Both the position numbers and the translations under genes were made by a program. A DNA stretch of 64,000 nucleotides from Fibrobacterota bacterium. Lineage in GTDB: Bacteria; Fibrobacterota; Fibrobacteria; UBA11236. Below the pieces are notes generated by a model. The model saw only the letters and a program-made list of their open reading frames with translations, was not told the origin of the DNA and searched no databases. Where the stretch lies: positions 64,412 to 128,411 of the forward strand of contig CANIEU010000005.1 in assembly GCA_947466585.1 (NCBI GenBank), given 5' to 3'. Within the stretch, counting starts at the first letter, position 1. Each line of letters starts with the position of its first letter. This document shows positions 3,042-61,114 of the stretch, piece by piece.

Positions 3042-3824
3042 ATGAGAATGACGGCACCGAAAACCGTGTATTTTTCCTTCATGCAATCCCAACCCTCCCG
3101 CCCTCGTGCTGGGCTCAATCCTCTCTTCCTGCTGATCCTGCTGACCTTCAGCGTGGTTCTCGGCGTCGTTAACAACCTGGTCAACCCCGACGGTACCGAC
3201 TGGGTCGGTAGTCCGCGGGTACTGCCGAAACCGCTGGATTGGCCGAGCCTTTCTGCTTCTGAGGGCTTCTCGGCCGGAGCCAAGTTCGCCTGGAGCGGTT
3301 TGTTGCAACATGCGCTTTGGGTGGCAGGAGCTTTGCTGGTGCTCGCCTTGGGGGCGGCCATGCTGCGCCAGCGTGCATCAGGACCTGCTCGTTGGGTCAT
3401 GAGCTGGCTGCGCGTTTTCTTCGGCGTCCTATTTTTGGCCGCCGCTTTTCCGAAATTCACCGACCCCGAAGGCTTCGCCATGATGGTGGCGCAATATCAA
3501 ATGCTGCCGGCCTTCGCCGTGAACGCGTTTTCGGTCTGGTTGCCGGCTTTGGAAATTACCGCGGGTCTCTCCTTGCTGTTGCTCCCTTGGGAGCGTGAAT
3601 CCACCGCCTTGGTGGGGCTTTTGATGGTAATGTTCATTGTGGCTCTGGCCCAGGCTCTCGGTCGTGATTTGGGCATCGCCTGCGGGTGCTTTGACATCAA
3701 AGGCGCCACTGATGCCGGGGAGACCTGGTTCGCCCTCTTGCGCGACGTGGTGTTGCTGGTCCCCATTTTTTGGATGTGGTGCCGGGCCGACCGCCGTCCC
3801 TTATGGCGCTTGTGGCGGTTCTGA
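3042..3824 (+). CDS. MauE/DoxX-like integral membrane protein
   Basis: Multi-TM hydrophobic protein. FPKFTDPEGFAMMVAQYQMLP resembles the methylamine-utilisation MauE family. Start is ambiguous (3006, 3042 or 3078). Confidence 0.5.
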   Translation: MRMTAPKTVYFSFMQSQPSRPRAGLNPLFLLILLTFSVVLGVVNNLVNPDGTDWVGSPRVLPKPLDWPSLSASEGFSAGAKFAWSGLLQHALWVAGALLVLALGAAMLRQRASGPARWVMSWLRVFFGVLFLAAAFPKFTDPEGFAMMVAQYQMLPAFAVNAFSVWLPALEITAGLSLLLLPWERESTALVGLLMVMFIVALAQALGRDLGIACGCFDIKGATDAGETWFALLRDVVLLVPIFWMWCRADRRPLWRLWRF

Positions 3825-4271: not shown

Positions 4272-4310
4272 AAAAAAAAGAGGAGGCTTTCGCCTCCTCT
4301 TTTTTTTTCA
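4272..4310. terminator. bidirectional intrinsic terminator
   Basis: A8-AGAGGAGGC-TTTC-GCCTCCTCT-T9: a perfect 9-bp GC-rich hairpin with an A-run on one side and a T-run on the other, sitting between convergent genes. Confidence 0.85.
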
Positions 4311-9768: not shown

Positions 9769-10569
9769 ATGCCGCGGCTCAAAATTGCCGGCTGGCTTCC
9801 CGTGTTATCCATGTGTGTTCTGGCGGTTTCCGCAACGGCTGCCAATCCCTTGCAGGCTTCGGAAGGTACGCCTTCGAAGTCGACGCTCGCCGCCGTTTCG
9901 CCGTTTACGGAAGCGGTTTCTCCACTCGCATCTTTGGCCGCACCAGGCATGCCGCGCGACTGGATGGCGCCCGACAACACCATCTTTTATGATCATCCGC
10001 TCATTCTGCGCCAGTGCGGTTACGGCGTGCTCACCGGTTTGGTCGCGGGGTCGCTCGGATTCTACATCGGAAACGCTTTTGAAGGGATGATCTTCGATCA
10101 CAACTCGCACAAAGGCTATCTGAGCTTTACCGGCATTCGCTACGAACACAGTCGGCGCTTTTTGGGCATGCCGGCGGGAGGCCCGTTCCTCGGAGGAACG
10201 ATCGGTCTGTTGGGTGGCAGTTCGCTGATGGTGTTTTTTACGGGCGACGCCGATGAGGAGCCCGGCAGTGTATTCTGGACCGTTGCAGGTGGTGCGCTCA
10301 CCACCGTGGCTGCGCTGGCCTTGGCTGATGTGGCGGGAGTGGGTGAGGATCGTGGCATGCTTCCCTTCATTCCGCTGTTGGCCTTGCCGCCGATCGGCGC
10401 CGTGGGTGGTTATCATGTTTCGCGTTGGTTCAACGATGCCAAGCGGCATCGCATCACGGAACCCGGCAGATCGGCCACGGGTCCGGTTTTCTACGGTCCG
10501 CGTGTGGGCATGACCCCGGGCCCCGACGGAATGGTGACGCGCCTCGAAGCGCTGCGCCTGACATTTTGA
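9769..10569 (+). CDS. hypothetical Gly-rich secreted/membrane protein
   Basis: Signal peptide MPRLKIAGWLPVLSMCVLAVSATAA. Glycine-zipper-like hydrophobic stretches. No identifiable domain. Confidence 0.45.
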   Translation: MPRLKIAGWLPVLSMCVLAVSATAANPLQASEGTPSKSTLAAVSPFTEAVSPLASLAAPGMPRDWMAPDNTIFYDHPLILRQCGYGVLTGLVAGSLGFYIGNAFEGMIFDHNSHKGYLSFTGIRYEHSRRFLGMPAGGPFLGGTIGLLGGSSLMVFFTGDADEEPGSVFWTVAGGALTTVAALALADVAGVGEDRGMLPFIPLLALPPIGAVGGYHVSRWFNDAKRHRITEPGRSATGPVFYGPRVGMTPGPDGMVTRLEALRLTF

Positions 10570-24728: not shown

Positions 24729-24970
24729 GAAGCGAACCGAAATCTGGACATTGGAACCAGACAACAGGTTGAATCCGGATATGCGATGACCCGATCGTTG
24801 AAAAATGATAATGAACTAGTTGGGAATAACCCGTCAAAGTTTTTTAATTATCAGATAATGGACAAATTGAAACACGGAAATAAAGGTGTCAATGGGACGT
24901 CATCGCTTCAATAAAAATCTGCTAGCCGGCGCTCTTTAAAAGGGCAGGGTATTCACAAGCCATTGAGAAG

Positions 24971-25090
24971 GCTCGCAATGGCTCGCAATGGCTCGCAATG
25001 GCTCGCAATGGCTCGCAATGGCTCGCAATGGCTCGCGACGACTTGTAATTGATTGTAATGTCTTGTGAAGGTGGGGAATAGCTTGTGATG
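24971..25090. repeat. 10-bp minisatellite (GCTCGCAATG x6.6 plus ~5 decaying copies)
   Basis: Perfect head-to-tail copies span 24971-25036. They are followed by GCTCGCGACG, ACTTGTAATT, GATTGTAATG, TCTTGTGAAG, and a more diverged copy (GCTTGTGATG) after a short gap, to about 25090. Confidence 0.9.
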
Positions 25091-25108: not shown

Positions 25109-26893
25109 CTATTCCCACTCGATCGTGCCGGGTGGCTTGTGCGTCACATCGTATAACAACGCACCTGCACCGAGCGCTCTCAATTCCTTCCACAGCGCAT
25201 CGAGCAAGGCGAAAGGTAGTTCCGCAAAACGCGCCGTCATGGCCTCGCTCGAGGAAACGGGCCGCAACACGAAAACCGGTCCGCCGCCCTTGGTCAACGG
25301 CAGAAGTACGACCGGCATTTGCCAAACAGCCGCATACAGGTTCTCGCGTTTGAGCGCCGCCGTGCAAAGAGCGTCGGCCTCTCGTAACAGGTTCAGGCTG
25401 TCCGATTCGCAGTACAAGGGGATGGGCGTATAAGCTCCCTCCGCCGCGTGCGTTTCCAGCACGATGCGGTTCACCGCACGCACGCGGTTGAGCACCACGG
25501 TGGCGGTTTCGTCCGCAAGCTTCCATTCCCGGGTGCCCCGGATCAATCCCGGATGCGCGTAGGTGCGGGCATCGCCCTGCACGCCCACGCTCTTGATGGG
25601 TAGAATCTCTCCCGTCAGGCCCGCAGCCGCAAGGATCGGAGCGATCGCAGCGCTGTCTTTTTCCGAAGCTGGTTCGCCATCGCCGTTCGAACAAAGAAGG
25701 CGTACGCCAAGCCCCGGGCCAGGGAAGGGGTGGCGGTCGAGCAACGGATCGGGAATGCCGAGACGGCGACCCAGTTCGCGCACTTCATCCTTGTACAGTT
25801 CCGCAAGGGGCTCTACCACCATGCCTTGCGCCATGAGGTCCAGAATACCCTGCACACGATTGTGGTGGGTCTTGATCACCGCTGCGTGCGCCGTGCCGCC
25901 GCTCTCGATCGTGTCGGGATAAATGGTGCCCTGTGCGAGCATCCACTCGGTCGGGTCCAGATTCAGTTCCGCGATCGCCACATCCTTCACATGCAGGAAG
26001 GTTTCGCCGATCACCTTGCGCTTGGCTTCGGGTTCGGTCAGGCCGAGGAGATTGTCCAAAAAGCGATCGGTTGCATCCGCGATTTTCAGATTATCAAAAC
26101 CTTGCGCATGCATGAACGCGAGTACCTCGGCACTTTCGTCCTTGCGCATCAGACCGTTGTCGATGTGCAGGCCCAGCACGCGGTCGGGGCCGAGCGCGCG
26201 GTTGAGCAGTTCAAACGCCACGGTGGAATCGACTCCGCCGCTGACGAGGAGGAACACCTTCTTGCCTGCGCACTGTTTGCTGAGTTGTTCCTGAATCGTT
26301 TGCACGTAATGATCCATGTTCCAGTCGAACGCGCAGCCGCAGATCGACAGGAAGTTGCGCAGCATCGTTTGCCCTTCGAGGCTGTGCGTCACTTCGGGGT
26401 GGAACTGCATCCCGTAAAACTTGCGGGCGTCGTCACCCACCGCGGCCTGGGCGCAATCGGAGGTCGAACCGATGTTGCGGAAACCGGGAGCGGGGGAGGA
26501 GACCTCGTCGCCGTGGCTCATCCACACAATGCTCTCGGCGGAAATATCACGGAACAGAGCGTGACCAGCCTCGGCACGCAATGCGGCGGGGCCGAACTCG
26601 TGCACCAGACCGCGCTTCACTTCGCCGCCCAAGGTCTTCGCCATCAATTGATGCCCGTAACACAGGCCGAGTACCGGCAATCCGAGCGCGAAGATGCCCA
26701 GCTCGCATTGCGGGGCCCCGGGCTCATACACCGACGACGGACCCCCGGAAAGTATGATTCCCTTGTAACCGACCAATTCTTCAGGTTTTACATGAGCCGG
26801 AACCACTTCCGAGTAAACCCCGAGTTGCCGGATGCGGCGGGCGATGAGGTGGGTGTACTGGCCGCCGAAATCCACAACTGCGATCTTTTCCAT
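25109..26893 (-). CDS. guaA: GMP synthase (glutamine-hydrolysing)
   Basis: 594 aa. GATase domain (CYGHQ) plus ATP-PPase (LLVSGGVDSTV) plus dimerisation domain. Carries an insertion of ~70 aa relative to typical enzymes. Confidence 0.9.
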   Translation of the reverse strand: MEKIAVVDFGGQYTHLIARRIRQLGVYSEVVPAHVKPEELVGYKGIILSGGPSSVYEPGAPQCELGIFALGLPVLGLCYGHQLMAKTLGGEVKRGLVHEFGPAALRAEAGHALFRDISAESIVWMSHGDEVSSPAPGFRNIGSTSDCAQAAVGDDARKFYGMQFHPEVTHSLEGQTMLRNFLSICGCAFDWNMDHYVQTIQEQLSKQCAGKKVFLLVSGGVDSTVAFELLNRALGPDRVLGLHIDNGLMRKDESAEVLAFMHAQGFDNLKIADATDRFLDNLLGLTEPEAKRKVIGETFLHVKDVAIAELNLDPTEWMLAQGTIYPDTIESGGTAHAAVIKTHHNRVQGILDLMAQGMVVEPLAELYKDEVRELGRRLGIPDPLLDRHPFPGPGLGVRLLCSNGDGEPASEKDSAAIAPILAAAGLTGEILPIKSVGVQGDARTYAHPGLIRGTREWKLADETATVVLNRVRAVNRIVLETHAAEGAYTPIPLYCESDSLNLLREADALCTAALKRENLYAAVWQMPVVLLPLTKGGGPVFVLRPVSSSEAMTARFAELPFALLDALWKELRALGAGALLYDVTHKPPGTIEWE

Positions 26894-30735: not shown

Positions 30736-30860
30736 GGAAGGGGTGGGTAAGAGTGATTAGGGGATAGCAACACAAGACACGTTTGATTGCACCTCACTCG
30801 TCGCTATCCACTATCCACTATTCACTATTCACTATCCACTTTTTCCTACTTCCTACTTCT
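30734..30860. repeat. heptamer-array element: degenerate AGKGRWK units then (ATYCACT)x5 and (TACTTCY)x2
   Basis: ATCCACT at 30806-30812 and 30813-30819, ATTCACT at 30820-30826 and 30827-30833, ATCCACT at 30834-30840, then TTTTCC-TACTTCC-TACTTCT. Upstream, overlapping the TAG stop of the regulator, sits a degenerate inverted partner (AGGGAAG, AGTGATT, AGGGGAT, approximating AGTGGAT). Confidence 0.7.
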
Positions 30861-33307: not shown

Positions 33308-33448
33308 AGGTAGGAACAGTAGGTAGTCGGTAGACGGTAGTAGGTAGAGAACGCGAGGATGGCGGGTTTCCAAGACTGCCGAATTCCCCAAATCCATACC
33401 GAATGAAGCCCTCTACCGTCTACCGACTACCTACCACCGTCTACTATA
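33308..33448. repeat. heptamer-array inverted repeat (GTAGGTA-GTCGGTA-GACGGTA ... TACCGTC-TACCGAC-TACCTAC)
   Basis: The 21-mer GTAGGTAGTCGGTAGACGGTA (33319-33339) has its exact reverse complement at 33414-33434. The 74-nt spacer lies in the divergent cbiX/gcvT promoter region. Additional degenerate 7-mers flank both arms. Confidence 0.9.
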
Positions 33449-38432: not shown

Positions 38433-38713
38433 AGCCGGGCTGTGACCGTCGCTCTAGAGTGTCGCCTTCCGTCGCGAGGCTACCAGCCTCGGTGGCTCGC
38501 GCCATCGGCGCTCACGCTATCAGATCGGTGCAGGCAACATTCGACCCTCCTCAGGCTCCTACTAGAGCTTGGTCTCGCTCCGGCTGTGCTTTAGCATTGA
38601 GTTCTTTATGTATGAACCAAAAAAAGGCGGCCCCGCAAGGAGTGGCCTTTTTCTTTGTTCATGAAATTCTCAATGCCGGAGCGACACCCTAGAGCGGCGG
38701 TCGCAGCCCGGCT
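38433..38713. repeat. 281-bp structured element bounded by 33-bp imperfect terminal inverted repeats (MITE-like or sRNA/terminator module)
   Basis: AGCCGGGCTGTGACCGTCGCTCTAGAGTGTCGC (38433-38465) pairs with its reverse complement at 38681-38713 (30 of 33 match). The interior holds a nested hairpin ATGAAC-A7GGC-GGCC..GGCC-T5-GTTCAT at about 38608-38665, plus several smaller GC hairpins. Confidence 0.6.
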
Positions 38714-39420: not shown

Positions 39421-39604
39421 GGTTTTGGGGCATATAATAGCTTCACGGGCGAATTCCCCAAAAAGGGGGGGCGAAGTGTATCCCCTCGATCCGGCTGTTT
39501 CCGTATCCCGGGGGCTCACGGGGTGTTACCTTCGACCTTCTACCGCTGCGTAGCCTTTCCGGCAACCCAGCAATCTCAGAAATCCTAGGAATCCCAGAAA
39601 TCTT

Positions 39605-49077: not shown

Positions 49078-50028
49078 ATGGGTGCCATCATCTCCGGCTT
49101 GGGAATCTCCCTTCCCGACAATGTGCTGACCAACGCCGATCTCGAGCGGATGGTGGACACCTCCGACGAATGGATTCTTACGCGCACCGGCATTCGTGAA
49201 CGGCGCATTCTTCCCAAAGACAGTCCTCTGCTGGCTTCCGATCTCGGAGCCGCCGCCGCCTTGCAGGCGTTGCAACGCGCCGGTGTTCGCGCCGATCAGG
49301 TCGGAGCGATTCTGGTAGGCGGTATCGTACCGGACATGCAGTTCCCGTCCACAGCGTGCATCATCCAGGAAAAAATCGGCGCCAAAAACGCCTTCGCGTT
49401 CGATATCACCGCCGCCTGCGCAGGGTTCGTCTACGGCGTGAACATGGCCTCGCTTCTGATCGACTCGGGACAGTGCGACCATGTGCTCGTGATCGGCGCG
49501 GAAACACTTTCACGCGCGGTCGACTGGACCGATCGCAACACTTGCATTCTCTTCGGGGACGCAGGCGCCGCCGCGGTGCTCAGCCGTGGCCCGAAGGATC
49601 GCGGCGTGATCCGCTCGTTGCTACGCAGTGACGGCGGCGCTGCCGATATTCTCAAGCTCGGCAATCTCGCGCACGGCACAGCATGCATCAACATGGACGG
49701 CAAGCACGTCTTCAAGCTTGCGGTCTCTGAAGTGTCGCGTGTGGTGGTGGACACGCTTGCGCTCGAAGGGCTGACAGCGGCCAACCTCGATCTGTTTGTC
49801 GCCCATCAAGCCAACGTGCGCATTCTCAACGCCATCGGCGAAAAGCTCGGCCTACCCGAAGAGAAGGTGATGGTGAACGTGCAGCGCTACGGGAACACCT
49901 CCTCGGCCTCCGTTCCGCTCGCCTTGTTTGAGGCGGAAGCGGAGGGCCGCCTCAAGCCCGGTATGCTCGTGGGCCTCGCCGCCGTGGGCGGCGGTATGGC
50001 GTGGGGATGCAATTTGGTGCGGTGGTGA
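49078..50028 (+). CDS. fabH: 3-oxoacyl-ACP synthase III
   Basis: 316 aa with the AACAGF active-site Cys region. Confidence 0.9.
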   Translation: MGAIISGLGISLPDNVLTNADLERMVDTSDEWILTRTGIRERRILPKDSPLLASDLGAAAALQALQRAGVRADQVGAILVGGIVPDMQFPSTACIIQEKIGAKNAFAFDITAACAGFVYGVNMASLLIDSGQCDHVLVIGAETLSRAVDWTDRNTCILFGDAGAAAVLSRGPKDRGVIRSLLRSDGGAADILKLGNLAHGTACINMDGKHVFKLAVSEVSRVVVDTLALEGLTAANLDLFVAHQANVRILNAIGEKLGLPEEKVMVNVQRYGNTSSASVPLALFEAEAEGRLKPGMLVGLAAVGGGMAWGCNLVRW

Positions 50029-50117: not shown

Positions 50118-51029
50118 ATGAGCAAACGCATCCTTCTCTTTCCCGGCCAAGGTTCCCAATACCTCGGTATGGGCAAAAAACTTTCCGAATCCCATGCAGG
50201 CGCCAAGCGCATTCTTGACGAAGCGAATGCGGTGCTCGGATTCGATCTTTCCGACATTCTGTGGAACGGTCCCGAAGAGAAGCTGACCTCCACCGACAAT
50301 ACCCAGCCGGCATTGTTCACCGTGTCGATGATGGCGTATGAGTGGTTGAAGGAACATCATCTTTCGGCTGATTACGCCGCCGGTCATTCGCTCGGCGAAT
50401 ATTCTGCCCTGTGCGCGGCAGGTGTGTTCTCCTTCGCCGACGGCTTGCGTCTGGTGCGCCTGCGCGGCGAATTGATGGCCAAGGCCGGCGTGGCCAAACC
50501 CGGCGCCATGTCCGCCATTCTGGGGCTCGAGCGCGACAAGCTCGAAGAGGCGCTCGCGGGCGCGGCTTCCGCAGGCATCGTGGTTGCGGCCAACTTCAAC
50601 AGCACCACGCAAATCGTGATCTCGGGCGAAAGCGCAGCGGTGGAAGCCGCTGAAAAACTCTCCACCGAACTGGGCGCGAAAAAAGTGGTGCGTCTCGCCG
50701 TGAGCGGCGCGTTCCACTCGCCGCTGATGGGCTATGCCGTAGACGGATTGGGCGCTGGTCTCGAATCGGTGGCCTTCGCCGCGCCGAAGATTCCGATCAT
50801 CAACAACGTGGATGCACACACCGAAAGCGATCCCGCCGCGCTCAAGGATGGATTGCTCCGTCAGCTTACCTCGCCGGTGCGCTGGGTCGAATCGATGCAG
50901 TTCGCCGCCGCACAAGGCGTCACCGAAGGACTCGAAGTGGGCGCCGGCAAGGTGCTTATGGGTCTCTTGCGCGGCATCACGCGCGACATCAAGGTCACGC
51001 CGGTGGAGAATCCTGAGGACTTGGCTTAA
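50118..51029 (+). CDS. fabD: malonyl-CoA:ACP transacylase
   Basis: 303 aa with GHSLGEY. Confidence 0.9.
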   Translation: MSKRILLFPGQGSQYLGMGKKLSESHAGAKRILDEANAVLGFDLSDILWNGPEEKLTSTDNTQPALFTVSMMAYEWLKEHHLSADYAAGHSLGEYSALCAAGVFSFADGLRLVRLRGELMAKAGVAKPGAMSAILGLERDKLEEALAGAASAGIVVAANFNSTTQIVISGESAAVEAAEKLSTELGAKKVVRLAVSGAFHSPLMGYAVDGLGAGLESVAFAAPKIPIINNVDAHTESDPAALKDGLLRQLTSPVRWVESMQFAAAQGVTEGLEVGAGKVLMGLLRGITRDIKVTPVENPEDLA

Positions 51030-51047
51030 CTTTACCCGTACTCCTAG

Positions 51048-51104
51048 TCGTACTTCGTACTCGTAATCGATCTTCGTTTCGTAAAAACCGAGTACGAGTA
51101 CGAT
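51048..51104. repeat. heptamer-array hairpin (TCGTACT)x2 ... (AGTACGA)x2 between fabD and fabG
   Basis: TCGTACTTCGTACTCG (51048-51063) pairs with CGAGTACGAGTACGA (51089-51103), giving a 15-bp stem with a one-nt bulge and a 25-nt loop. Confidence 0.85.
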
Positions 51105-51126
51105 AAATTAGAGAGAGGATTTACAC

Positions 51127-51861
51127 ATGATCGACCTCAAAGGACAAACCGCTCTCGTCACCGGCGCCAGCCGCGGACTGGGCTACGCCATCGCGCACCG
51201 TCTCGCCACTCAGGGGGCCATCGTGCACCTGGTGGCACGGGGAGCCGCCGGGGTGGAGGAGGCCGCGCAAAAGATCGCTGCCGAAACCGGGGCGACCACG
51301 GTTGCACACGCGGCCGACATCGCCGACGCAGCGGCCGTACAGGGAGTTTTCGACGCAGTCCCCGATCTCGATATTCTCGTCAACAATGCCGGCATTACCC
51401 GCGACGGTTTGTTGATGCGCATGAAGGAGGAGGATTTTGACGAGGTGATCCGCGTCAATCTGCGTTCCGTGTTTTTATGCTCGCGTGCTGCAGTGAAGGC
51501 GATGATGAAGCGCCGTTACGGCCGCATCGTGAACCTCACATCCATTGTGGGGGTGCATGGTCAGGCGGGGCAGACCAATTACGCGGCCTCCAAGGCCGGT
51601 ATCATCGGGTTTACCAAAGCCACTGCCAAGGAAGTTGCGACACGCGGAATAACCTGCAACGCGATCGCCCCGGGTTTCATTGAATCCGACATGACCTCGG
51701 TCCTGAGCGAAGCCCAAAAGACCGGGATCCTGGCATCCATTCCGCAGGGACGCATGGGCCAACCCACAGAAATAGCCGACCTGACGGCCTACCTCTGTTC
51801 GCGGGAATCGGCCTATATTACCGGCCAGGTTCTCTCGATCGACGGGGGAATGGGGATTTAG
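51127..51861 (+). CDS. fabG: 3-oxoacyl-ACP reductase
   Basis: 244 aa. [12 protein letters not shown], and a YAASKAG catalytic tetrad region. Confidence 0.9.
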
Positions 51862-51871
51862 GGGGGCGCCT

Positions 51872-52001
51872 ACAGCGGACAGCGGACAGCGGACAGCTTA
51901 CAGCCAACTCCCGGACAAAACCTGCTTCAAGGCAGGCTTCCGGGGGAAAGTTTTTGTTGTTCACTGTTCACTGTACGCTTTACGCTGTAAGCTCATCGCT
52001 C
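51872..52001. repeat. heptamer-array element (KACAGCS)x5 ... terminator-like hairpin ... (CRCTKTW)x6 in the fabG-acpP spacer
   Basis: TACAGCG-GACAGCG-GACAGCG-GACAGCT-TACAGCC spans 51872-51906. A spacer containing CCCGGA..TCCGGG / CCTGCTTCAAGGCAGG hairpins is followed by GTTTTTGTT. Degenerate inverse units (CACTGTT, CACTGTA, CGCTTTA, CGCTGTA...) span 51960-52001, ending 37 nt before the acpP ATG. Confidence 0.8.
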
Positions 52002-52037
52002 TTTGCTATACTTTTCCAACCTTTCAAGGAGAATCAA

Positions 52038-52274
52038 ATGTCCGACGACATGCTGCAGAAAATCACCAAGGTGATCGTTGAAAAATTGGGTGTCACCGAA
52101 GACAAGGTGAAGCCCGAAGCCGCCTTTGTGGAAGACCTCGGCGCCGACTCTCTCGACCAAGTCGAGTTGGTCATGGCTCTCGAAGACGAGTTTGATCTCG
52201 AGATTCCCGACGAAGACGCGGAGAAGCTCAAGAAAGTGGGAGACGTCATCTCCTACATCTCGTCGAAGAGCTAA
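52038..52274 (+). CDS. acpP: acyl carrier protein
   Basis: 78 aa counted from ATG 52038, preceded by an [25 protein letters not shown] phosphopantetheine site. Confidence 0.9.
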
Positions 52275-52298
52275 GGTTTTTCGCCTTCCTTCGGTTCA

Positions 52299-52345
52299 AT
52301 ACGGGCACTGCGCGCAAGCGGCGGTGCCCGTATTGCGTTGAAGGG
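52299..52345 (+). terminator. stem-loop downstream of acpP (putative terminator/attenuator)
   Basis: AATACGGGCAC-(15 nt)-GTGCCCGTATT: a perfect 11-bp stem followed by only a weak T-run (GGGTTTTC). Confidence 0.5.
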
Positions 52346-52376: not shown

Positions 52377-53129
52377 ATGCTTTCCTTTCTGAAAAACCTT
52401 TTTCGCGCCGGTACTCCCGGCTGGAAGCGTCCCGCGCGCCTTGAAAAGGTCATGGATTACCGCTTCAGCGATCCGCGCCTGCTCAAGATGGCGCTGTCGC
52501 ACCGCTCCTGGGTGAACAACGTCACGCGCGGTTCCCGACCTCCTTCCAATGAACGACTGGAGTTTTTGGGCGACAGCGTGATGAACGCCATCATCACCGA
52601 TACGCTGTATCGACGCTTTCCCGATTGCGACGAGGGCGAACTTTCCAAAATGAAATCGCTCGTGGTCAGCGCCAAGGTGCTGATCCCCTGTGCGGCGCTG
52701 CTCGACTTGGGCGAATACATGCTGCTCAGCAAATCCGAAGAAAAGTCGGGCGGGCGCACGCGTCCCAGCATTCTCGCAGACGCTTACGAAGCCATGCTCG
52801 GTGCGGTTTATCTCGACGGCGGTTACGAAGCCGTGCGCACCTTGATGAAGCGCACGCTCATCCAGATCATGGACGAGATTTTGCTCGACGCCAGCTTGGC
52901 CAATTATAAAAGCCTGTTGCTCGAATTCACCCAGTCGCGCGGGCTCGGCACGCCGCATTACGACGTGATCCGCGCCAGCGGTCCCGAACACCGCAAAGCC
53001 TTCGTAGTCGCCGCGATTGTGCGCGGCGAAGAGTGGGGGCGCGGTGCCGGCGGCACCAAGAAAGAAGCGGAGCAGGCCTGCGCCCGCGCCGCCCTCGAAA
53101 ACCGCGGCGCCTTGTTGGAGTCGGGTTAG
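52377..53129 (+). CDS. rnc: ribonuclease III
   Basis: 250 aa counted from ATG 52377. RNase III signature ERLEFLGDSV, with a C-terminal dsRBD. Confidence 0.85.
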   Translation: MLSFLKNLFRAGTPGWKRPARLEKVMDYRFSDPRLLKMALSHRSWVNNVTRGSRPPSNERLEFLGDSVMNAIITDTLYRRFPDCDEGELSKMKSLVVSAKVLIPCAALLDLGEYMLLSKSEEKSGGRTRPSILADAYEAMLGAVYLDGGYEAVRTLMKRTLIQIMDEILLDASLANYKSLLLEFTQSRGLGTPHYDVIRASGPEHRKAFVVAAIVRGEEWGRGAGGTKKEAEQACARAALENRGALLESG

Positions 53130-56451: not shown

Positions 56452-56480
56452 TTATGGAAGCAGAAACCGGTGCAGCCCGA

Positions 56481-58131
<1,651 letters not shown>

Positions 58132-58135
<4 letters not shown>

Positions 58136-59703: not shown

Positions 59704-60945
59704 ATGAAAAGAGTCGTCATCACCGGTATCGGCACCGTCAATCCGCTCGGCCTCACGGTCGCGGAGTATTGGACCAATCTGGCCGCAGGCAAATCGGGCA
59801 TCACGCGCAATACTCGCTTCGATGTTTCCACCTTCTCGAGTCAGATCGCGGGCCTCGTTCCCGATTTCGATCATGTGCCGCTTTTCAAGGATCAGAAGAT
59901 GGCGCGTCGGCTTGACAAGGCCATCATCTATGGTGTGGTCGCCGGCAATGATGCCGTTAAAGATTCCGGTCTTGCAACGGGCAACTACAATCCCGAGCGC
60001 GTGGGCGTGTACCTCGGCAGCGGCATGGGCGGCGTAGGCACTTTCGAGGCCGAGACGGAAGTCAAGGCGGCACGCGGTCACAAGCGTGTGAACCCGTTCT
60101 TCGTGCCCATGATTCTGCCCAATACGGCCTCGGGCTATCTCAGCATCGAACACGGATACATGGGCCCCAACTACACGGCGGTGTCAGCCTGCGCGAGCGC
60201 GAATCACGCGATGGGGGAGGCCTTCCACGCCATTCAACGCGGCGACGCCGACGTGATTTTTGCCGGCGGCACCGAGGCCGCAGTGGTTGAGGTGGTCGTG
60301 GCCGGCTTCGCCAACATGAAGGCTCTTTCGGGCCGCAGCGACGACCCGGAAGGCGCCTCGCGTCCCTGGGACAAGGGCCGCGACGGCTTCGTGATTGCCG
60401 AGGGTGCGGCGGTACTGTGCCTCGAAGAGCTGGAGCATGCGAAGGCGCGCGGTGCAAAGATCTATGCCGAGTTCGCCGGGTTCGGGCAGAGCAGCGACGG
60501 GTATCACATCACCGCGCCGCATCCCGAGGGCGCGGGCGGCGCGCTGGCCATGAAGGCCGCGCTGCGCAGCGCGAAGCTGAATCCCGAAGACATCGATCTG
60601 GTAAACGCCCACGGCACCTCTACACCGCTGGGCGACCGCGGCGAGACCATGGGTGTGAAGAAATGCTTCGGCGAGCACGCCAAAAAGCTGATGATGCACT
60701 CCACCAAATCGATGATCGGGCATACGCTCGGCGCGGCGGGTGCGGTCGAGGCCGTGGCGGCCATTCTGGCGCTCGACAAGGGCATCGTGCATCCCACTCG
60801 CAATCTTTACGAAGCGGACCCGGAGTGCGATCTGGATTACGTAGCGAACGTGGCTCGTGAGGCGAAGGTGCGCGCGGTGTTGTCGAACTCGTTCGGCTTC
60901 GGCGGGCACAATGCGACGGTGATCTTGAAAAGTTTCGTAGGCTAA
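59704..60945 (+). CDS. fabF: 3-oxoacyl-ACP synthase II
   Basis: 413 aa with KAS II active-site Cys (AVSACASANHA) and a His-His region. Confidence 0.9.
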   Translation: MKRVVITGIGTVNPLGLTVAEYWTNLAAGKSGITRNTRFDVSTFSSQIAGLVPDFDHVPLFKDQKMARRLDKAIIYGVVAGNDAVKDSGLATGNYNPERVGVYLGSGMGGVGTFEAETEVKAARGHKRVNPFFVPMILPNTASGYLSIEHGYMGPNYTAVSACASANHAMGEAFHAIQRGDADVIFAGGTEAAVVEVVVAGFANMKALSGRSDDPEGASRPWDKGRDGFVIAEGAAVLCLEELEHAKARGAKIYAEFAGFGQSSDGYHITAPHPEGAGGALAMKAALRSAKLNPEDIDLVNAHGTSTPLGDRGETMGVKKCFGEHAKKLMMHSTKSMIGHTLGAAGAVEAVAAILALDKGIVHPTRNLYEADPECDLDYVANVAREAKVRAVLSNSFGFGGHNATVILKSFVG

Positions 60946-60951
60946 CCTGTG

Positions 60952-61114
60952 GAAATGAGAAATGAGAATTGAGAAATGAGAAATGAGAAATGAGAAATGA
61001 AGGTTTGGCATTCGGAGGGGCATTCGACCAAGCTTCAAAAATCAGGAAATAATGGGGAATCCGCTGGCGGTGTTCCTCTTTTTTTCTCATTTCTCATTTC
61101 TCAATTCTCATTTC
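60952..61114. repeat. heptamer-array inverted element: (GAAATGA)2-GAATTGA-(GAAATGA)4 ... (TCATTTC)2-TCAATTC-TCATTTC
   Basis: Left array 60952-61000, right array 61087-61114, 86-nt spacer. Even the variant unit (GAATTGA / TCAATTC) is mirrored. Starts 7 nt after the fabF stop. Confidence 0.9.

Follow-up and report, generated by a model that had tools for sequence, protein, structure and literature searches.

The question raised by the fatty acid synthesis (fab) cluster of an uncultured Fibrobacterota bacterium is whether the hairpins built from 7-nt repeats between its genes are regulators dedicated to this operon or local members of something wider. The window analysed here is the whole stretch of 64,000 nt on contig CANIEU010000005.1 (assembly GCA_947466585.1, positions 64,412 to 128,411 of the forward strand). 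An initial annotation had noticed heptamer arrays with inverted counterparts in both the fabD/fabG and the fabG/acpP spacer and had proposed that they could act as partial terminators or RNA-processing sites that set the ratio between the fab enzymes and acyl carrier protein (ACP). This regulatory interpretation is partly supported. We put a probability of roughly 55% on a different reading, in which the fab hairpins belong to a lineage-specific, genome-wide set of paired inverted heptanucleotide repeats that were born by local slippage, any effect on RNA being secondary.

The comparison covered an in-clade set of 180 kb, consisting of the window and relatives from the same uncultured Fibrobacteria subclade, and an outgroup set of 63 kb (L005, L007, L036 and L037; FabG identity ≤ 81%). 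Loci are referred to by L numbers; L038 stems from GCA_050486505.1 and a scan of metagenomes contributed only seven extra loci. All relatives are metagenome-assembled genomes (MAGs) or metagenome contigs, and the assignment of contigs to one genome is uncertain. FabD of the window is 80-91% identical to proteins of uncultured Fibrobacteria MAGs. Arrays were detected with Tandem Repeats Finder (TRF) and a period scan of our own, and the element statistics rest on n = 36 elements.

Paired arrays in the fabD/fabG and fabG/acpP spacers

Both internal spacers of the cluster hold one recurring type of element with a strong predicted hairpin, as the initial annotation had stated; sequence and folding agree on this (z = -4.2 for the fabD/fabG spacer and -4.4 for the fabG/acpP spacer against shuffles). 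We label the six elements of the window A to F, of which C and D lie in the fab cluster.

Element C is located between fabD (50118-51029) and fabG (51127-51861). Its 5' arm (51036-51063) consists of degenerate TCGTACT-type units with two perfect copies at 51048-51061, its loop (51064-51088) holds additional decayed TCGTAAn units, and its 3' arm (51089-51104) has CGAGTACGAGTACGA at 51089-51103, which TRF reads as GAGTAC GAGTAC GA. The (TCGTACT)2 array described earlier is thus present, whereas its supposed inverse arm (AGTACGA)2 has a period of 6 nt instead. In the minimum free energy (MFE) fold, 51047-51063 is predicted to pair with 51089-51104 in a stem of 16 bp, with a 1-nt bulge at T51055 that results from the 6-nt period of the 3' arm. 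No U-run follows the stem. Judged by its units, element C resembles what is left of an older TCGTAAn array (compare the 3' arm in L002) to which a short new inverse arm was added, which would explain its pyrimidine-rich 5' arm, a rarity among the elements.

Element D is located between fabG and acpP (52038-52274) and was found as described before, with five GACAGCG-type units, a GC hairpin with T-run and six inverse units. Its 5' arm (51871-51905) reads TACAGCG GACAGCG GACAGCG GACAGCT TACAGCC; TRF and the period scan count three perfect and two variant copies in this array, against two perfect copies in element C and seven in element F. The centre (51906-51961, forward strand) is a compound GC hairpin at 51906-51952 (AACTCCCGGA..CCTGC-TTCAA-GGCAGG..TCCGGGGGAAAGTT) followed by UUUGUUGUU, with GTTTTTGTTGTT at 51950-51961. 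In the predicted fold this is a terminator-like hairpin with a U-rich tail, and the centre looks like a terminator for fabG. The 3' arm (51958-52001) comprises the six degenerate inverse units TTCACTG TTCACTG TACGCTT TACGCTG TAAGCTC ATCGCTC (51960-52001). It keeps a 7-nt phase (xGCTxxx) that continues directly into the TGCTATA of a promoter-like site, and it ends 37 nt before the acpP ATG at 52038.

This site is an extended -10 promoter-like sequence for acpP, TGCTATACT at 52004-52012 (forward strand), read in the spacer alignments, and it is followed by the Shine-Dalgarno sequence AAGGAG at 52026-52031 (forward strand). The combination of a TTGnTATAnT motif and AAGGAG precedes acpP in every genome compared, with arrays or without, which fits the earlier remark that acpP is often transcribed separately.

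The arms behave differently from these signals and turn over rapidly between orthologous spacers. The closest relatives, L024 and L025 (FabG 95% and 94% identical), have a fabD/fabG spacer of 15 nt without any element, and in the more distant Fibrobacteria L005, L007, L020 and L036 the two genes overlap. Elsewhere the same spacer carries other units, namely CGCAAAG (L001, L026), GAGTTAC (L002), ATCTGAA (L003), AAATCGG (L004) and ACTCAGA (L017), a decayed element (L006, L018) or nested AAGAATT/ACGAATT arrays (L038). The L038 spacer (9793-9982) holds a double element. Its 5' side has AAGAATT as the outer and ACGAATT as the inner sub-array, and the 3' side matches them in mirrored order, with TCGTAAT inside and AATTCTT/AATTCCT outside; a second L038 locus (3209-3324) likewise has units of the AAGAATT type.

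In the fabG/acpP spacer, L025 shares the centre of the window (AACTCCCGGACAAAACCTGC...CCGGGG) but has GACCGCG/TACGGCG arms, L024 has TTAGCTn/AGCTAAn arms around a different centre, and L026, L002 and the outgroups have no heptamers, although L026 retains GCTTCCGGGGG...TTTTTTGTCG. The centre of element D is homologous to that of L025 and partly to that of L026. Two other spacers give the same picture: around a related loop, the x/yceD spacer carries GGGGACG (L001), GTACTCG (L026) or GGAGGTA (L038) arms, and the rnc/lplA spacer carries GTTGTTG, GTTGTCn or GTACTCn units around a related TTTCAGC(G/T)TG. These alignments indicate that the centres are vertically inherited while the arms change.

The comparison with related genomes that the initial annotation had called for therefore splits its claim: the central hairpin and the promoter are conserved, but the heptamer arms of the cluster are not, being absent from the fabD/fabG spacer of the closest relatives and different or missing in fabG/acpP. 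Since the terminator-like centre and the promoter are kept with or without arrays, the alignments identify the hairpin after fabG and the extended -10 promoter of acpP as the conserved signals of the fabG/acpP spacer, with the heptamer arms as an overlay.

A genome-wide class of period-7 elements

The window holds seven period-7 arrays against 0.1 expected from block shuffles, and periods of 4-6 and 8-12 nt give zero to one array each. Besides C and D, other spacers hold four more elements of this build, each with a unit of its own. Element A (30742-30859) occupies the convergent spacer between a sigma-54 activator gene and a trmA-like gene and has a decayed G-rich 5' arm, followed by (CTATCCA)5 and an outer (TTCCTAC)2.4 remnant. 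Element B (33318-33444) has GGTAG(A/T)C units and their inverse in the divergent cbiX/gcvT spacer, with a core complementary at 22 of 22 nt. Element E (56479-56595), between a helicase gene and a co-directional M16 peptidase gene, consists of GAATGAn units (tabulated as GAATGAA) and then (TTCATCA)4. Element F (60952-61114), in a co-directional spacer downstream of fabF, consists of (GAAATGA)7 and then (TTTCTCA)4.6; within it, a hairpin at 61054-61078 precedes a run of seven T (z = -10). All six fold on the forward strand with z between -3.8 and -10. The predicted stems measure about 35 bp in F, 22-26 bp in B and about 26 bp in E; that of D is interrupted and that of C is the bulged 16-bp stem.

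Inverted pairing is near-universal. For 49 of the 51 period-7 arrays in the in-clade set, an inverted partner within 220 nt beats all 100 shuffles of the array's own flanks, and only two arrays show a weak second direct array. An alternative null drawn from random segments of the same loci was dropped, as it was contaminated by true partners and same-family arrays. The units themselves are diverse: the six window elements carry at least five unrelated units, and the 36 elements across relatives more than ten families. All elements lie between called genes, E and F overlapping only predicted N-terminal extensions of the downstream genes, and they occur in co-directional, divergent and convergent spacers. 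Because the identical architecture recurs in unrelated spacers, including divergent and convergent ones, it is a genome-wide repeat phenomenon.

It is also confined in lineage, as the 63 kb of outgroup sequence contain no period-7 arrays and have compact, very short spacers. A Pfam scan of the approximately 48 open reading frames (ORFs) of the window found no transposase, REP-associated tyrosine transposase (RAYT) or reverse transcriptase, and in Rfam 15 no family attains its gathering score at any point of the 64 kb. This includes glycine riboswitches, of which none was matched upstream of gcvT, in the 157-nt spacer that element B fills almost completely.

The window sequence is not an assembly artefact, since it recurs in independent assemblies from several samples (L011-L016, L027) with 100% identical proteins. 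Logan unitigs of the window's strain (L028-L031) start or stop exactly within arrays E and F (window positions 56566 and 60988). The arrays therefore break k-mer assemblies, and short-read MAGs probably contain too few of these elements or truncated copies of them. In practice, they fragment short-read assemblies and mislead gene callers over start codons.

Start codons beside elements E and F deserve mention here. The M16 peptidase gene after element E (56531-58135) has only two in-frame canonical starts upstream of its signal-peptide-like segment, GTG 56531 and GTG 56552, and the (TTCATCA)4 arm may therefore be translated. In the M16 peptidase gene of L026, a TTG directly after the arm gives a normal signal peptide. 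In element F every GAAATGA unit contains an ATG, and the ORF from ATG 60997 (to 62004) stays in frame across the whole element and continues into the downstream gene. Gene callers place the start of the protein at 60997, and only from residue 75 onwards is it homologous to the outgroup protein.

Origin of the arrays and rival explanations

How could arrays with unrelated units arise in complementary pairs? We infer that each element, built as (unit)n, a locus-specific centre and (inverse unit)m, would be born in place by 7-nt tandem duplication through replication slippage on both flanks of a short inverted repeat that already existed, in many cases a terminator-like hairpin. The two arrays would be complementary from birth because their seeds already were. 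Afterwards each arm would expand, contract and decay on its own, and new unit variants would sweep through an array, so that orthologous spacers come to carry different units or none. In the fab cluster, the arrays would be superimposed on the older conserved fabG terminator-like hairpin and the extended -10 promoter of acpP.

Several observations fit such a process. The cbiX/gcvT arrays are seeded from local sequence: L033 has a short array-free spacer (GGTAGCAGAAATGAGG...CTATATTCCCC), the GGTAGnC array of the window starts at GGTAG, the AATGAnC array of L032 starts at GAAATGA, and L034 has AAATCAG. L034 and L035 are 99.99% identical over 21 kb and differ by two single-nucleotide polymorphisms and one 14-nt indel. 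This indel equals exactly two units in the 3' arm of one element, the other arm being unchanged, and reads as a signature of slippage. The single difference between L011 and the window in 6,735 nt (51980 T>G) lies inside array D and makes two neighbouring units identical, although this is one event and anecdotal.

Other observations weigh against slippage as the whole account. Within the species of the window no copy-number variation was seen, the contigs sampled being 99.98-100% identical. Elements persist in the spacer between the sigma-54 activator and trmA-like genes and in the cbiX/gcvT spacer across genomes with only 76% GcvT identity, which is compatible with function. Units are shared (at ≥ 6 of 7 positions) by 9 of 61 pairs of elements from the same genome, compared to 23 of 569 pairs from different genomes (permutation p = 0.004), a statistic that is driven by L026, L001, L002 and L034 and uses pairs that are not independent. 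Single units recur at unlinked loci of one genome (GTACTCG at four of seven loci in L026, GTTGTTG twice in L001, GGGTACT twice in L034). Purely local slippage accounts neither for this recurrence nor for the near-absence of unpaired arrays, and it does not explain why the period is 7. The arms are moreover polar, the 5' arm having more G than C in 26 elements and more C than G in 6 (p = 0.0005). Since inverted repeats read the same on either strand, the arm beside any downstream start codon is G-poor and therefore poor in start codons and Shine-Dalgarno-like sequence. This polarity is plausibly a mark of selection, for example against such sequences. For the pairing and the recurrence of units, hairpin-stimulated slippage, selection for pairing and copying between loci are possible explanations.

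The rival that survives best, though we find it doubtful, generalises the proposal of the initial annotation and takes the elements as selected RNA modules. The arms would lengthen terminator hairpins and so attenuate read-through, protect the 3' ends of upstream mRNAs or, by creating sites for RNase III, insulate neighbouring transcription units; in the fab cluster they would tune FabD and FabG against ACP. The strong predicted hairpins, the near-universal pairing, the persistence of elements at some spacers across the subclade and the G-poor 3' arm beside downstream start codons, which suggests selection at the level of RNA or translation, all speak for it, and rnc, the gene for RNase III, adjoins acpP. 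An RNase III processing site takes about 20 bp or more of nearly continuous double-stranded RNA, so that the predicted stems of B, E and F would be long enough.

Selection acting on one RNA strand should raise the stability of the sense strand by means of G-U pairs. Among 20 co-directional elements, however, 9 have the more stable fold on the sense strand and 11 on the antisense strand (Wilcoxon p = 0.53), and with neither a sense/antisense difference in MFE nor a G-U bias we rejected strand-specific selection. In about 8 of 23 co-directional elements, D, E and F included, the centre has its strongest T-rich stretch at the 3' end. As the balance of T-run against A-run strength in the centres (12:7) is not significant, the terminator reading is confined to a subset of elements, in which the folds probably place D and F and not C, which has no U-run. 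A consensus promoter and terminator scan called nothing at elements C-F, the acpP promoter or the acpP terminator, and is too strict to inform.

The locations of the elements also argue against selected RNA modules. No single transcript would hold both arms of an element in a divergent spacer (B, and those of L026 at 813 and 5962). Element C is missing from the nearest relatives, and L026, L002 and the outgroups lack the arms of D even though centre and promoter persist. An acpP mRNA starting at its own promoter would not include the arrays. On the preferred reading of arrays born by slippage, transcripts that end at the fabG hairpin or start at the promoter at 52004-52012 would hold at most one arm. 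The long stem would form only in read-through RNA, where it could make RNA polymerase pause or terminate, shield the 3' end of fabG or serve as a substrate of RNase III. Such effects would be by-products or weakly selected rather than a dedicated device for the FabD/FabG/ACP ratio.

A further rival, which we hold to be unlikely, is that the repeats are dispersed or written into place, either by a mobile element or by a trans-acting or inter-locus copying process (gene conversion or a template-directed enzyme) that sets units around hairpins. It would account for the excess of unit sharing within genomes, to which L038 adds AAGAATT at two loci, and for the fact that L001 and L002 differ at one unit position (GTTGTT versus GTTGTC) in both the fabH/fabD and the rnc/lplA spacer. 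The single-unit families of Xanthomonas and Beggiatoaceae are likewise without an explained dispersal route. Against it, the centres are locus-specific and appear vertically inherited while the arms change, the arrays begin from local sequence, no target-site duplications or common termini were seen, the window encodes none of the mobility enzymes listed above, and the sharing statistic leans heavily on L026 and on non-independent pairs. Mirror copying of whole arms, as the pair GAATTGA and TCAATTC in element F might suggest, was rejected by permuting unit order in 15 elements (Fisher p = 0.89).

In one form of this rival, which deserves a similarly low probability, a subclade process (a trans-acting determinant or inter-locus copying) would install and homogenise heptamer units flanking hairpins at many unlinked loci. 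The unit would then be a genome-level trait and not a local accident, and the many unit families, fast turnover and array-free sister lineages would offer a natural system in which to find the cause of the bacterial excess of 7-nt repeats.

Very improbable, finally, is binding by a protein that reads 7-nt steps, such as a cold-shock-domain protein on RNA (one per heptamer) or a heptad-binding ribbon-helix-helix protein on DNA whose specificity the units track: it would fit the heptamer register of CspB binding (cited in PMC4679880), the location of 3' arms 8-40 nt upstream of start codons and the genome-specific unit families, but it does not explain the obligate inverted pairing, 64 kb of one genome hold six or more different units, and no candidate binding factor was identified.

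Relation to known repeats and further observations in the window

Cyanobacterial heptanucleotide repeats have been known since 1990, and others followed later in Xanthomonas, Beggiatoaceae and further bacteria. Among the long simple repeats of bacteria they show the strongest over-representation, and to our knowledge both their origin and their function are still unsettled. As the cause of the over-representation, polymerase slippage has been suggested (PMC4692102, PMC4679880). The 7-nt step of the present arrays agrees with this idea. Our literature search found no description of such repeats in Fibrobacteres/Fibrobacterota.

The Fibrobacteria elements are a variant of the heptanucleotide repeats of Xanthomonas, Nostoc and Beggiatoaceae. 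With these simple sequence repeats (SSRs) they share the tandem 7-nt unit, the intergenic site, length steps of whole units and close inverted pairs, but they do not use one or a few fixed units genome-wide. The nearest counterpart is GGGAATC of Xanthomonas, with 70-75 convergent inverted pairs among about 185 arrays, whose position is conserved between species while their length varies (Rehm et al. 2015, PMC4692102). Both systems place two opposite-strand arrays close together in an intergenic region with the G-rich array first, and both occupy the same spacers in related species with variation in length and sequence. Xanthomonas, however, has one genome-wide unit with G-quadruplex potential and about three quarters of its arrays paired, whereas the Fibrobacteria, which belong to another phylum, have many unrelated units per genome, near-obligate pairing and centres that are often terminator-like. 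TCGTACT, GACAGCG, GAAATGA, GGTAGAC and CTATCCA lack G3 runs, and only GGGGACG of L001 would qualify for a G-quadruplex.

The cyanobacterial short tandemly repeated repetitive (STRR) sequences, among them GGGGAYT of Nostoc, and TAACTGA of Beggiatoaceae are similarly intergenic, lineage-specific 7-nt repeats, often near start codons (PMC4692102, PMC4679880). They are mostly direct arrays of few fixed units, with few inverted pairs in Nostoc and one indirect repeat among 170 sets in a Beggiatoa genome (PMC4692102, PMC4679880), whereas in the Fibrobacteria inverted arrangement is the rule and units vary by locus. By chance we also found an STRR-type array, (AGGCAGG)5, just upstream of fabD in L010 (5696-5732), a contig of the cyanobacterium Crocosphaera that entered the comparison as a distant FabD match.

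Repetitive extragenic palindromic (REP) sequences have a conserved consensus of 20-40 nt across the genome and a cognate RAYT transposase. They and their composites, bacterial interspersed mosaic elements (BIMEs) and REP doublets forming hairpins (REPINs), resemble the present elements in being extragenic, hairpin-forming, species-specific and often near terminators, with proposed roles in 3'-end protection or termination. The Fibrobacteria arms differ in being internally tandem-repetitive, with no genome-wide consensus and no RAYT in the window, and a REP/BIME/REPIN identity was rejected, as the window's elements have no 20-40 nt consensus in common. A MITE (miniature inverted-repeat transposable element) was rejected as well, since the GTACTCG copies at four loci of L026 differ in their centres and flanks and have no target duplications. 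Intrinsic terminators and RNase III stems are approached by the centres of D and F, each a hairpin with a U-rich tract, and by the long, nearly perfect predicted stems of full elements. Neither signal needs the heptamer arms, relatives keeping the centre without them, and element C has only its short bulged stem and no U-run.

For the fab cluster, this calls for caution: conspicuous hairpins within an operon may be something other than regulators specific to it. More broadly, near-obligate inverted pairing, many units per genome, visible local seeding, a unit-step indel and repeat-free sister lineages make this subclade an informative case, in which the origin and selection of 7-nt repeats become approachable by comparative genomics (genes gained or lost where the subclade arose) and metatranscriptomics.

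The fab genes were placed from ORFs, precomputed Pfam calls on identical contigs and reading of the sequence, and all lie on the forward strand. On this basis, fabH (49078-50028) precedes fabD, and rnc (about 52380-53129) is located just downstream of acpP. A hairpin 3' of acpP (52288-52344, forward strand) with the core GGGCACTGCGCGCAAGCGGCGGTGCCC is present in all close relatives. The fabF gene (59704-60945) lies apart from acpP, separated by rnc, an lplA-like ligase gene, an ERCC3/RAD25-type helicase gene and two M16 peptidase genes; the gene order from rnc to fabF is kept in the outgroup Fibrobacteria L036 and L037.

Repeats of other kinds were noticed in the window as well. Downstream of guaA (25109-26893, minus strand), positions 24970-25066 hold a direct 10-mer array, (GGCTCGCAAT)6.7, followed by about five decayed GnCTTGTnAT units; it has no clear inverted partner and may be a related slippage product of another period. 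Four direct 9-mers at 39566-39602 (CCCAGCAAT CTCAGAAAT CCTAGGAAT CCCAGAAAT) end 2 nt before ATG 39605, a position reminiscent of the TAACTGA repeats that Beggiatoaceae carry close to start codons. In the spacer after ahpC, a non-periodic inverted repeat of 33 nt (38433-38465 and 38681-38713, 91% complementary) surrounds 215 nt that include a clear terminator, AAAAAAAGGCGGCCCCGCAAGGAGTGGCCTTTTT, and the same spacer bears heptamer elements in L033 and L034. A perfect 16-bp palindrome between convergent genes at 4272-4307 (AAAAAAAAGAGGAGGC/GCCTCCTCTTTTTTTT) looks, from its sequence, like a bidirectional terminator.

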